Shown in pieces: positions 23,369 through 32,149 of a stretch of DNA of 44,665 nucleotides. The position numbers and the translations under genes are program-made. The stretch is from NCBI GenBank assembly GCA_016204465.1, contig JACQKQ010000034.1:1-44665 (forward strand), read 5' to 3'. Source of the DNA: Candidatus Levyibacteriota bacterium (lineage in GTDB: Bacteria > Patescibacteriota > Microgenomatia > Levybacterales > UBA12049). A model generated the notes under the pieces. The model did no database searches. It was not told where the DNA came from and was given only the letters and a program-made list of their open reading frames with translations. Each line of letters opens with the position of its first letter. Within the stretch, counting starts at the first letter, position 1.

Positions 23369-25666
23369 ATGCCATTAAGTGATATATTCCTTGTTTTTCA
23401 ATGGTGGGGAATGTTTGCCATTATCGGTTTATTGTTTTTTCCGCTTGCAAACTACCTTTTCCCATCATTTATTGACCGCGGCTTCGTATTTGCAAAAGTT
23501 TTAGGAATCATCTTAACCAGTTATATTGTCTTTCTTCTTGGAACACTTCGCATTATGCCGTTTACGCAAATAAACGTGATTGTAACTATCATTGGATTAA
23601 GTATAGCGCTCTTCTTTTTTCTAAAAGGCTCGCTTCTTTTGCAACAACTTAAAAAGTCTTGGTGGTTAATAGTGCTTGAAGAACTCCTCTTTTTTGCCAC
23701 GCTTCTATTTTGGACGTATGTTCGAGCGCACCAACCCGAAATCCGTGGCCTTGAAAAGTTTATGGATTTTGGATTTGTTAATTCTATTTTACGAGCTGAA
23801 TACTTTCCGCCAAAAGATATGTGGTTTACGCCTTTTTCGATTAACTATTATTACTTCGGGCATCTGACAACTGCAGTACTGACAAAACTTATTGGCATAC
23901 CATCTTTTGTAACATATAACCTTATGCTTGCGACGCTTTTCGCATTCACCTTCACTTGTTCATTCTCAATTGGAGCAAACCTAATTCATGCAATATCGAA
24001 TATCGAATCTCGAAATTCGAAACGATCTCAAAATAAAAAACGTTTTGAAAATTCAAATTTGTTTCGTGCTTCGGATTTCGGATTTCGGATTTTAATCGGT
24101 GGATTATTAACTGCATTTCTTGTTTCACTTGCAGGGAATCTCCATACTGTCTATACCTTTTTCAAACCATACCAAACAGATAACCCGCTCCCGATTACAC
24201 AACTCGCATTTTCTCCTACATCTTTTCCAAATAGCTACTGGTACCCAAATGCGACACGGTTTATTTACAACACCATTCATGAGTTCCCTATCTATTCATT
24301 CGTCGTAGCAGATCTCCATGGCCACGTACTGGATATCCCTACAGTTCTCTTGACAATTGCAGTATTACTTTCTCTAATAAATTCGAAGCACAAATATCGA
24401 AATTCGAAACAAGATCAAAATACAAATGACCAAAAAATGAAACTTTTTGAAAATTTTAATTTCAGAAATTGGAATTTGTTTCGGATTTCGGATTTCGGAT
24501 TTCGGATTTTACTGCTAGCATTTTTGCTAGCAGTTATGTACATGACAAATATATGGGACGGAATTATCTACTTATTGTTGGTAATTGTGGTTTGTTTGTA
24601 TCTTAATTTAAAAAATGTGCCATTTTCCGCTTTACGCTTTACGGTTTACACCTTGATACTTATAGTAGGATTTATTCTTTTCTCTCTCCCTTTTAGCTTG
24701 CACTTTAAGCCATTTGCGTCTGGCATTGGCGTTCTCTGTGCGCCACAATTTTTAACAAATATTGGAAGAATTGGTCCGTTTCTTTTTGAAGCAGATCATT
24801 GCCAAAAATCTCCCATCTGGCAGCTTGCAACACTGTATGGATTTTTCTATTTTTGGGTAATTGCGTTTTTTGTTTTCCTTCTTCGAAAATTGCGCGAAAA
24901 AACATTTATGCCGTCTGTGCAAGACCTTTTTGTTATTATGCTTATTTGCCTATCAAGCATCCTCATTGTAATACCTGAATTTATTTATGTAAAAGACATT
25001 TACCCAGCCCATTACCGAGCAAACACAATGTTTAAACTTGTCTACCAAGCGTTTATCATGCTCTCAATAGCGTCTGCGTACAGCATCACAAGAATAATTA
25101 CCAATTACCAATTTCAAATTTCAAATTTCAAATATATAAGATTTATCTTTTTTATATTTGCTATTTTATTTTTTATTTTGGTAGCAATATATCCGTATTT
25201 CGCGATCACTTCGTACTACGGCAATTTGCAAACATACCAAGGATTAGACGGCATAAGATACCTAAACGCGCAGTATTCCGATGATCATAAAGCCATTCTC
25301 TGGCTTAACAAAAACATCGCTGGTCAACCGGTTATTCTTGAAGCGCAAGGAGACTCTTATACTGACTTCGCACGAATTTCTGCAAATACTGGATTACCAA
25401 CAGTTTTAGGATGGACTGTGCATGAATGGCTCTGGAGAGGCACATATGATATTCCTTCTCCTAGAATTGCAGAAGTGCAAACGCTCTACGAAACAACAGA
25501 TATAAAAGAAGCAAAGCGGCTTATTGATAAATACAATATAGAACTTATTCTTGTCGGAACGCTCGAGCGGCAAAAGTACCCAAGCCTGCAAGAAGAAAAG
25601 TTCAGCGCAATGGGGCGCATTATATCCAAGCAGGGATCAACAACTATCTATAAGCTCACTCGTTAA
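23369..25666 (+). CDS. DUF2298 (YYY-motif) GT-C-like membrane protein carrying in-frame repeat inserts
   Basis: EKFMDFGF, INYYYFGH, IHEFP.YSF...DLHGH, RANTMFK and GLPTVLGW..HE..WR motifs. Confidence 0.85.
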   Translation: MPLSDIFLVFQWWGMFAIIGLLFFPLANYLFPSFIDRGFVFAKVLGIILTSYIVFLLGTLRIMPFTQINVIVTIIGLSIALFFFLKGSLLLQQLKKSWWLIVLEELLFFATLLFWTYVRAHQPEIRGLEKFMDFGFVNSILRAEYFPPKDMWFTPFSINYYYFGHLTTAVLTKLIGIPSFVTYNLMLATLFAFTFTCSFSIGANLIHAISNIESRNSKRSQNKKRFENSNLFRASDFGFRILIGGLLTAFLVSLAGNLHTVYTFFKPYQTDNPLPITQLAFSPTSFPNSYWYPNATRFIYNTIHEFPIYSFVVADLHGHVLDIPTVLLTIAVLLSLINSKHKYRNSKQDQNTNDQKMKLFENFNFRNWNLFRISDFGFRILLLAFLLAVMYMTNIWDGIIYLLLVIVVCLYLNLKNVPFSALRFTVYTLILIVGFILFSLPFSLHFKPFASGIGVLCAPQFLTNIGRIGPFLFEADHCQKSPIWQLATLYGFFYFWVIAFFVFLLRKLREKTFMPSVQDLFVIMLICLSSILIVIPEFIYVKDIYPAHYRANTMFKLVYQAFIMLSIASAYSITRIITNYQFQISNFKYIRFIFFIFAILFFILVAIYPYFAITSYYGNLQTYQGLDGIRYLNAQYSDDHKAILWLNKNIAGQPVILEAQGDSYTDFARISANTGLPTVLGWTVHEWLWRGTYDIPSPRIAEVQTLYETTDIKEAKRLIDKYNIELILVGTLERQKYPSLQEEKFSAMGRIISKQGSTTIYKLTR
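23992..24092. mobile_element. Heptamer-ended foldback element, copy 1, in frame within the DUF2298 gene
   Basis: Left arm aatatcg-aatatcg-aatctcg-aaattcg-aaac. Right arm gttt-cgtgctt-cggattt-cggattt-cggattt. Confidence 0.7.
24379..24509. mobile_element. Heptamer-ended foldback element, copy 2, in frame within the DUF2298 gene
   Basis: aaattcgaagcacaaatatcgaaattcgaaac ... aatttgtttcggatttcggatttcggatttcggattt. Confidence 0.7.
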
Positions 25667-26762
25667 GCTTTGAGGGGCTTGGTGTAACTTTGCAGTTACC
25701 GATTTCTATTTCGCATTTCACAAATGCTTGCATTTCTGTGTAATTGCCCGCCCCAAGCCGCGGAATAATAACCCATTGCCCTTCATATGCGTCTGAAACA
25801 GGCGGATTAATCACCATGCCCTGTTCTTTTTCATAGTACGGCGTATAGTAGAATACAACACTATTAGTCTTAGCGTTTTCCATTTTCCGCGCAAGTTTTA
25901 TAAAATCGTCATACTCATCCTCTTTAATATTTGTATCAATACTTTCTTTAAACACATCATACAAACTAATAATGCGCGAAGGATTTACAAGCGTCCCAAG
26001 AGAGAAGATTTTTGCCTTAAATGCATCAATGACTTTTTCCTGGCGTTTTGCCCTGGCAAAATCAGTACCTTCTTCTCCTTTTGCATGGCGTGAGCGGACA
26101 AACTTAAGCGCCGTTTCTCCATTTAGGTGCTGCAGTCCTTTTTCAAACTGTATGTGTTCAAACCGGCATGGAAACGCCTCAAGAATAGCTGAAGAAGTTG
26201 CCCGTTTTTCAAATTCCTCACCTTCAAAACCGCAGGTATCCGTTTCTTTGCCGGAAAGCGGGTATTCAGAATCTTCAAAGCTTCGTTCTACATTAACATC
26301 AACCCCGCCAATGGTGTCAATAGCTTTTATAAATCCGTTAAAATCAATTCTTACTGCGTAGTCAACAGGCTGTTGTAAAATCTTTTGCACAATAGCTGTT
26401 GTGAGCACCAACCCTCCTCCTTTACGTTTTGCCTCACCATAAGCATATGCGGTATTAATCTTTGCTTTCATTTCAGGAATCCATAAATCCCGCGGCAAGG
26501 AAACAAGTGTTGTCTTTTGTCCGTTGGAATCAATACCTGCATAGATAATAGTATCTGTAAGAAGCGGTCCGTCATGTCTTCCTCCACCGATTCCAAGTAC
26601 CAAGATGTTAATTCGAGCTTCAATTTTCTTAAGTTCGATTGCCGGCTTTAGGAAAAGCTGCCACAAAAACGGGATCTTCACGAGCACGATGCCGTATACA
26701 ACAAGTAAAAAAAATAAAACGGTAATAATAATTTTCTTCTTAGATATCTTTTTTTTACGCAT
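25656..26762 (-). CDS. LytR-CpsA-Psr (LCP) family glycopolymer ligase
   Basis: INILVLG, LTDTI, SLPRDLW, KINTAY, GGVDV, ALKFVRSRH and DFARAKRQ motifs. Confidence 0.92.
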   Translation of the reverse strand: MRKKKISKKKIIITVLFFLLVVYGIVLVKIPFLWQLFLKPAIELKKIEARINILVLGIGGGRHDGPLLTDTIIYAGIDSNGQKTTLVSLPRDLWIPEMKAKINTAYAYGEAKRKGGGLVLTTAIVQKILQQPVDYAVRIDFNGFIKAIDTIGGVDVNVERSFEDSEYPLSGKETDTCGFEGEEFEKRATSSAILEAFPCRFEHIQFEKGLQHLNGETALKFVRSRHAKGEEGTDFARAKRQEKVIDAFKAKIFSLGTLVNPSRIISLYDVFKESIDTNIKEDEYDDFIKLARKMENAKTNSVVFYYTPYYEKEQGMVINPPVSDAYEGQWVIIPRLGAGNYTEMQAFVKCEIEIGNCKVTPSPSKLNE

Positions 26763-31747: not shown

Positions 31748-32053
31748 ATGGCAGGAAAAGTAAAAATACGTATTCAGCCACTTTTCGATAATGTTCTTAT
31801 CAAACCGCTGGAGGCAGAAGAAAAAACTGTAAGCGGAATTATCCTGCCAGACACTGTAAAGGAAAAACCGCAAATTGGCCTTGTAATGGCTCTGGGTCCT
31901 GGAAAAGTAACTCCTAAAGGAGAAAAGCATAAAATGGTGATAAAAGTAAATCAGAAAGTTATGTATAAGAAATGGGGCGGCAACGAGGTAAAAGTAAACG
32001 GTGAAGAGTGGACACTGATCAGTCAAGATGATGTCTTGGCAATCGTAGAGTAA
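31748..32053 (+). CDS. groES: Co-chaperonin GroES
   Basis: IQPLFDNVLI...EEKTVSGIILPDT.KEKP..G.V.A.GPG. Confidence 0.97.
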   Translation: MAGKVKIRIQPLFDNVLIKPLEAEEKTVSGIILPDTVKEKPQIGLVMALGPGKVTPKGEKHKMVIKVNQKVMYKKWGGNEVKVNGEEWTLISQDDVLAIVE

Positions 32054-32149
32054 ATTCGAAGTACGAATATCGAAGCTCGAAACAAATTCAAAGATTCAAA
32101 TGACAAAAATTCAAAACATTTCGGATTTCGGATTTCGGATTTCGGATTT
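32052..32149. mobile_element. Heptamer-ended foldback element, copy 3 (between groES and groEL)
   Basis: aaattcgaagtacgaatatcgaagctcgaaac ... (atttcgg)x4. Confidence 0.7.

Follow-up and report, generated by a model that had tools for sequence, protein, structure and literature searches.

The stretch of DNA analysed here, referred to as the window, comprises 44,665 nt of contig JACQKQ010000034.1 (assembly GCA_016204465.1, Candidatus Levyibacteriota bacterium) and carries three short hairpin elements, two of them within a gene for a DUF2298 membrane protein and one between groES and groEL. Judged by sequence comparison, all three belong to a type of hairpin that is composed of 7-base units and in its full form encloses a gene for a four-helix-bundle protein; the copies here lack this gene. 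In the following, we call a hairpin without the gene 'empty' and a hairpin enclosing the gene a cassette. The reading that we favour, and consider probable, is that of a selfish cassette family without a transposase, the gene-less derivatives of which land broadly, persist where they are harmless, are read through in mRNA and are probably excised from rRNA.

The window elements and their hairpin family

Element 1 (e1; positions 23992-24092, 101 nt) and element 2 (e2; 24379-24509, 131 nt) lie in frame in the DUF2298 gene (Pfam PF10060; 23369-25666), where they specify residues 208-242 and 337-381, respectively. Element 3 (e3; 32052-32149, 98 nt) fills the spacer between groES (31748-32053) and groEL (32167-33813); it starts at the second base of the groES stop codon, with which it shares two bases, and a purine-rich, Shine-Dalgarno-like stretch follows at about 32156-32163. 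All of these features are on the plus strand. A first-pass annotation of the window had reported the three elements with exactly these boundaries, their placement in the two loci and the encoded peptides, all of which we confirmed. Each element has two outer arms of 34 nt (e1: 23992-24025 and 24059-24092; e2: 24379-24412 and 24476-24509; e3: 32052-32085 and 32116-32149), and each arm consists of four CGAA cores with 3-base slots between them. The middle, described in that annotation as A/T-rich, is actually a second, inner pair of looser, degenerate heptamer arms. Within these inner arms, e2 (24424-24437, ATG at 24426) and e3 (32098-32111, ATG at 32100) carry on the plus strand a stub that matches the start of the four-helix-bundle gene of full cassettes. 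When both strands were folded, the plus strand folded better in all three elements, with RNA folding z-scores of -1.0, -4.0 and -2.3 for e1, e2 and e3, respectively; given this z-score, e1 alone is not significantly structured.

The window genome (881 kb, 88.8% complete), which is present in groundwater metagenomes, holds further copies. An nhmmer search gave 32 hits over the two strands, corresponding to 16 loci of one hairpin family, of which e1-e3 are three. Four copies lie inside coding sequences (two in the DUF2298 gene, the others in MurD and RluA), two over the 3' ends of genes (nusA and atpH; the last four names were assigned from the translations), three in rRNA genes (two in 23S and one in 16S), six in co-directional spacers, and one was left unclassified. 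According to Rfam alignments, one 23S copy and the 16S copy replace terminal loops; the alignment ends short of the second 23S copy. Among the 201 genomes of the order that were searched, the arm pattern occurs in 85, and the window genome is the richest in this hairpin family. The left-arm pattern was detected at no fewer than 125 loci in genome_contigs, the titles of which name at least nine phylum-level groups. Phage sequences (viral_contigs) gave only two exact matches, both lone left arms, and phage was rejected as a vehicle.

The family is one of dozens of heptamer unit families that coexist in the window genome. Arrays with a period of 7 numbered 208, compared to 8 after block-wise codon shuffling, with a mild enrichment also of periods 8, 9 and 10 (25, 20 and 10 arrays vs. 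1, 0 and 1). The 208 arrays merge into 163 elements which, classified with our own gene caller, comprise 77 in coding sequences (including a few chance low-complexity matches), 54 in co-directional spacers, 7 in divergent and 1 in convergent spacers, 5 in rRNA and 19 unclassified ones. Some of the arrays with periods of 8 to 10 flank four-helix-bundle genes.

The cassette and its four-helix-bundle gene

The first-pass annotation had proposed that the elements are non-autonomous mobile copies or the empty shell of a cassette, of which longer versions enclosing an open reading frame (ORF) might exist. The dispersed copies described above and gene-bearing relatives both support this proposal. A four-helix-bundle ORF (TIGR02436, the intervening sequence (IVS) protein) is enclosed in 5 of the 125 loci sampled, 45 of which had flanks of only 300 nt. 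In the reverse direction, both arms, with up to 5 mismatches, were found around relatives of the ORF at 10 of 30 loci of the order and, in metagenomes, at 39 of 70 loci with full flanks, 10 short loci being set aside; most of the remaining loci have variant heptamer arms, as judged by eye. In many phyla, these arms surround TIGR02436 genes that belong to a single subfamily. The start of the cassette gene lies inside the inner arm; 62 of 76 cassettes have the ATG at offset 40, and the stub of this gene start is kept in 54 of 111 empty copies and in 5 of the 16 copies of the window genome, including e2 and e3. In 42 of 43 cases, the cassette gene and the host operon point the same way. Purifying selection acts on the gene, with a median ratio of nonsynonymous to synonymous substitution rates (dN/dS) of 0.064 and a maximum of 0.125 among 26 non-independent pairs. 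The structure of a homologue (2RLD) contains five chains, and S23p of Xanthomonas is described as a homopentamer in PMC4990558, which also reports heptamer repeats ahead of the S23p ORF in the 23S IVS of Coxiella and the cutting of this IVS by RNase III.

Two loci suggest a rearrangement of cassettes. At one of them (L229, about 1110-1690), an intact empty element has a four-helix-bundle gene and then an additional right arm immediately behind it, an order that could have come about by recombination of the gene together with one arm into an empty copy. The other lies upstream of a gene starting MENHPIPQD, where the four-helix-bundle gene of the window genome (G000:C5:5214-5540) has arms of an 8-base-like kind and another genome (L197, G019) has a different four-helix-bundle subfamily between CGAA arms; it seems that cassettes are exchanged as a whole at this site.

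Insertion sites, translation and arm pairing

Empty orthologous sites, as looked for since the first-pass annotation, do exist. Of 30 genomes, 16 have a groES-groEL spacer of 1-17 nt; in the other 14 it spans 39-122 nt and holds several unrelated heptamer families, the window-type family being present only in genome G092. One 23S helix is empty in 22 and filled in 8 of 30 cases, and within genera one and the same junction is either empty or occupied by this hairpin family or by another one; elements are thus gained, lost and exchanged at these sites in a patchy manner. Copies in one genus (g47; L338:1360-1480 and 8370-8497) have an extra short A/T hairpin beside the downstream start codon. No cassette was found at the groES-groEL site (30 loci) or at the DUF2298 sites (27 loci), and among contigs of four runs no strain was found in which the site is empty; the partial matches were mostly repeats of other organisms.

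As to the length of the orthologous loops, on which the insertion of e1 and e2 had been made to depend, site 1 is shorter in 25 of 26 orthologs than in the window gene, and site 2 is as long (at least 49 residues) in 11 of 26, often with other heptamer elements. The net gain amounts to ~21 residues for the 34 codons of e1 (45 vs. an array-free median of 24) and to ~31-33 residues for e2 (58 vs. 25-27 in the shortest orthologs). Both values are below the ~33 and ~43 added residues reported earlier, since each element has taken the place of some of the native loop. For single arms, which have a median length of 38 nt, the median gain is 0 residues (n = 46). Insertions overwrite host sequence. 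In the DUF2298 gene of G029, the window-type family is in a third loop, which is empty in the window gene. The orthologs at L009, L010 and L031 have unrelated GC-rich palindromic repeats in the same loops and, as these enter there too, the DUF2298 loops are general landing sites.

For 108 elements, a single homologue anchors the flanks on both sides; 91 of these elements are in frame and free of stop codons, and the other 17 are artefacts, i.e. antisense frames spanning two genes. All true coding-strand cases (91/91) are thus open, including 24 that add at least 7 residues. The complete DUF2298 orthologs are all single ORFs (27/27; three loci at contig ends were left out). In an AlphaFold model of the DUF2298 protein based on an alignment of 27 sequences (predicted template modelling score, pTM, 0.86), the per-residue confidence (pLDDT) drops below 50 at residues 219-233 (e1) and 351-373 (e2), and both loops lie between helices. 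The inserts are predicted to be at the protein surface with the fold kept, and helix alternation together with invariant residues would place both loops on the cytoplasmic side. Because of the open frames and of the position of the inserts in low-confidence loops between helices, translation of e1 and e2 into floppy loops on the cytoplasmic side is likely and their splicing out of the mRNA is unlikely. Of the two fates considered originally, translation in the manner of Rickettsia palindromic elements (RPEs) is accordingly the better reading, and removal from the RNA has lost ground, as there is no frame break among the 91 cases.

The two arms of an element pair at 96% of the cores and 34% of the slots. 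No fully paired slot is present in 110 of 157 elements, compared to 70 expected with arms oriented conservatively, and within the window genome only 3 of 64 facing slots are perfectly paired vs. at least 9.3 expected (p = 0.005). Facing slots are identical in 38 of 420 cases in empty copies (78 after shuffling) and in 23 of 208 cases in cassettes (36 after shuffling), relatedness among the elements being not fully controlled in these slot statistics. Both CG-core cassettes and empty copies show such anti-complementary slots, and the longest Watson-Crick run does not exceed 9 bp in any of the 16 copies. The first-pass annotation had argued for a single-stranded intermediate from a strand asymmetry of G-U pairing. 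The excess of G-U over A-C (14 vs. 7 in the window elements and 42 vs. 33 in the 16 copies) disappears when 61 oriented empty copies are compared on their transcribed strand (123 vs. 141); the sense strand folds better in 30 of them and worse in 31. The asymmetry is an accident of three copies, and a G-U strand bias was rejected. A folded single-stranded stage is still suggested, now by the anti-correlated facing slots. Because the arms 'see' each other without strand bias, the loss of perfect DNA palindromes is the simplest cause of the mismatches.

Copies of the 23S type, in several families, are enclosed by an additional 17-bp clamp (CTTGT-N7-ACAAG / CTCG-N9-CGAG). Eleven clamp pairs were found in 2.13 Mb of partly redundant sequence after one mis-paired row had been dropped, all of them at rRNA sites (three by Rfam, seven in loci of the 23S query and one beside a 16S motif recognised by eye); the clamp is absent from mRNA copies. 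Its central pairs are kept in 77 of 77 cases vs. 55 in shuffled pairs, with two-sided, compensatory changes, and its runs of 12-14 bp are above the ~11 bp of helix that RNase III needs according to PMC3867540. A gene for RNase III is present in the window genome, and this one genome holds the whole series of mRNA loop, operon spacer and rRNA copy with clamp. Neither the clamp nor the slot anti-complementarity was found in the published passages that were searched.

Origin of the family and related systems

In the favoured reading of a selfish, transposase-free cassette family, the elements would spread through a folded single strand, probably aided by the four-helix-bundle protein, which is predicted to be pentameric like its solved homologues and might bind the 4-5 repeats of each arm. 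Copies would insert without much preference for particular targets, in many cases at the expense of some host sequence, and would survive only where they are tolerated, i.e. at operon junctions, in surface loops and at rRNA helix tips. Perfect arms would be purged as unstable DNA palindromes, so that periodic mismatches remain. Copies in mRNA would be read through, and clamp-bearing copies in rRNA would be cut out by RNase III like known IVSs. The strand-joining step and the single-stranded intermediate are steps that we infer.

Several observations weigh against this reading. The order from cassette to empty copy could be reversed, with the gene as a guest in a pre-existing hairpin. A cognate gene with these arms was not found in the window genome, the seven four-helix-bundle matches of which have other arms or none visible (the best match, at 46%, has other arms). 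Across genomes, the link between the cognate gene and the number of empty copies is weak (7/20 vs. 29/181, p = 0.06, with kin not independent). Cassettes sit between housekeeping genes with no catalytic mobility enzyme linked, and no reverse transcriptase (PF00078) was found in the 88.8%-complete genome. No residue of the protein that would confer specificity for CG or CT arms was found, none tracking the arm type on a quick, poorly resolved tree with 8 of 96 branches starred. In the 23 cassettes with CT cores, the anti-complementarity is missing (14 vs. 15), and a cruder, register-free slot test, in which families were mixed and mis-paired, gave no mismatch signal, other families being positively similar. 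There are no recent identical copies among the 16, and the 16S copy lacks the clamp. Finally, with G-U pairs allowed, e2 forms a helix of 17 bp on the mRNA strand, which is longer than the ~11 bp mentioned above; mismatches alone therefore do not protect mRNA copies, and the notion that they shield mRNA from RNase III is weakened by the helices of 11-17 bp in the window copies.

Other explanations account for parts of these data. If local slippage and fold-back made heptamer hairpins in place, with perfect ones deleted and the gene a recombined passenger, one would expect the many unrelated unit types, the lack of identical copies, the single arms that add no length and the balance of G-U and A-C, which points to a filter at the DNA level; heptamer repeats are also in general excess in bacteria (PMC4692102). 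We nevertheless regard this as unlikely: the 34-nt arm, the inner arm and the gene-start stub come back in one and the same order at sites that are unrelated, and in many phyla, adjacent slots within one arm are identical in only 13%, unlike in slippage arrays, and fold-back copying predicts identical facing slots, the opposite of what was observed. Quite unlikely, in our view, are hairpins kept by the host to tune mRNA stability or translational coupling, e.g. between groES and groEL, or as sites for host proteins, with the coding copies as spill-over. Correia and ERIC elements do act on mRNA through RNase III/E (PMC10969869), and 54 of 62 classified intergenic elements are co-directional with only 1 convergent (p = 0.006), but outside the sample of the window genome, 13 of the 110 intergenic loci of the family that could be classified are convergent. 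A start within -10 to +13 of the stop codon in 32 of 54 elements is forced by empty gaps of only 1-30 nt. Furthermore, about half of the relatives have empty sites while the others carry unrelated families there, and neither orientation nor folding is biased toward the transcribed strand.

A classical miniature inverted-repeat transposable element (MITE), mobilised in trans by a transposase of the DDE or HUH type, would explain the inverted ends, the size of 70-200 nt, the empty sites, the longer ORF-bearing form and perhaps the small excess of flanking direct repeats of 5-7 nt (12/183 vs. 3.9). The genome also contains three RAYT-like Y1 transposases (C40:1283-1942, C47:11668-12375 and C23:9725-10390), but each of these has GC-rich palindromes of its own on its flanks and is not bordered, as in pairs of repetitive extragenic palindromes and RAYTs, by the repeats in question, heptamer arms being present at 0/3, and a link to them was rejected. 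No linked transposase was found, Y1 families having been checked and other transposase families not searched, and the enclosed ORF is TIGR02436. Target duplications of a fixed length, as envisaged for ortholog sites, did not appear, there is no fixed terminal base or dinucleotide, the ends avoid perfect complementarity and host sequence is partly replaced. This explanation is largely refuted and very unlikely, and the term 'MITE-like', used in the first-pass annotation, does not apply in its strict sense. Extremely improbable is intron-like splicing from the mRNA, by which the loops would never be made. The same family does form IVS-like inserts in rRNA, and precise loss at orthologous sites occurs, but the uniformly open frames, the confinement of the inserts to low-confidence loops between helices and the lack of the clamp in mRNA copies all argue for the loops being made, as in the favoured reading.

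Compared to known systems, the family acts like RPEs in proteins and like IVSs in rRNA, and it fails the tests for MITEs. With rRNA IVSs (S23p/PF05635/TIGR02436; PMC4990558, bioRxiv 10.1101/2024.02.27.582315) it shares the stem-loop, the four-helix-bundle ORF and the heptamer repeats as well as ORF-less short forms at rRNA helix tips, 3 of the 16 copies here being in 16S/23S helices. In contrast to these, most copies here belong to mRNA, either in coding loops or in operon spacers, and their translation would be expected, the three window copies are not in rRNA, and the ORF is found only in full-length relatives and in none of the 16 copies. For rRNA genes of the candidate phyla radiation (CPR), many short uncharacterised inserts and scattered IVP ORFs have been described (bioRxiv 10.1101/2024.02.27.582315), the word 'repeat' being absent from the main text of that preprint as available. 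Prokaryotic MITEs (Correia, ERIC, RUP; PMC10969869) are likewise short, gene-less and dispersed, with inverted ends (here the 34-nt arms), a position near gene ends and empty sites; the hairpins here differ by the lack of a fixed target duplication or a detected transposase partner, by systematically mismatched ends and by pairwise identities of 59-85% among the 16 copies, i.e. without the homogeneity of a burst. RPEs are described as palindromes of ~100-150 nt that lie in frame in unrelated conserved genes (PMC10969869). The likeness is one of description, and the hairpins here, unlike RPEs, are built of heptamers, are tied to a four-helix-bundle cassette, occur across phyla and partly replace host codons. 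Heptamer repeats of bacteria include the short tandemly repeated repetitive (STRR) sequences of cyanobacteria, and like these the arrays found here have a period of 7 and about four units and are enriched over other periods. Those of Xanthomonas and Nostoc (PMC4692102) and TAACTGA of Beggiatoaceae (PMC4679880) also have about four units, often in inverted pairs, close to gene ends and sometimes overlapping stop codons; no link to a four-helix bundle was found in the accessible text of either source, 'four-helix' not occurring in the former and '23S' not in the latter. PF05635 resembles Avd of diversity-generating retroelements, to which it is homologous in fold (PMC10053308), and the replacement of host sequence without change in length recalls retrohoming, by analogy only; the reverse transcriptase of such retroelements was, in contrast, not found in the 88.8%-complete genome. 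No published account of a system of cassette plus derivatives was found, most subscription papers and the supplements of the CPR preprint being outside the search.

More tentatively, and with considerable doubt, we put forward a so far unrecognised cross-phylum class of transposase-free mobile elements, in which an Avd-like pentamer of four-helix bundles would recognise heptamer arms on a rod-like single strand with periodic mismatches and paste or overwrite copies into transcribed DNA without target duplication. If this were true, one design would cover rRNA IVSs (with the clamp added), in-frame protein loops and the excess of heptamer repeats in bacteria, for which an explanation has long been lacking; PF05635/TIGR02436, a family of unknown function, would gain a nucleic-acid partner, and bacterial heptamer repeats an origin. 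A minimal genome would then also be seen to tolerate dozens of repeat-derived loops in core enzymes.

The window contains further heptamer arms, all of them single and in frame. Two arms of other families lie on the plus strand in two more loops (24624-24649 and 25096-25133) of the DUF2298 gene, without net gain in length, and two arms of two families on the plus strand in a FemAB-family gene (29588-29614 and 29881-29913). On the minus strand, there is one arm each in lepA (10799-10825) and in the genes for triosephosphate isomerase (27313-27342) and methionyl-tRNA synthetase (43303-43336). The DUF2298 protein itself has a predicted GT-C (oligosaccharyltransferase-like) glycosyltransferase fold, with STT3/AglB, DPY19 and AftA as best Foldseek matches of the model (E 3e-6 to 1e-4, TM 0.3-0.4) and PMT_2, GT4, epimerase and UbiA genes as neighbours, and is likely a lipid-linked-sugar glycosyltransferase. 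The 23S gene of G000:C25 contains at about 3290-3900 an insert, recognised by eye, that we take to be group I intron-like and that carries a heptamer hairpin. A second 23S gene in the bin of the window genome (G000:C38:1-2430) is only 76-80% identical to that of G000:C25:581-4614 over the matched stretches, and C38 (5.3 kb) may be a contaminant. A GC-rich double-hairpin repeat is found in frame in uvrD (28483-28511, peptide QPKADRPLAE) and is matched by contigs of other organisms.

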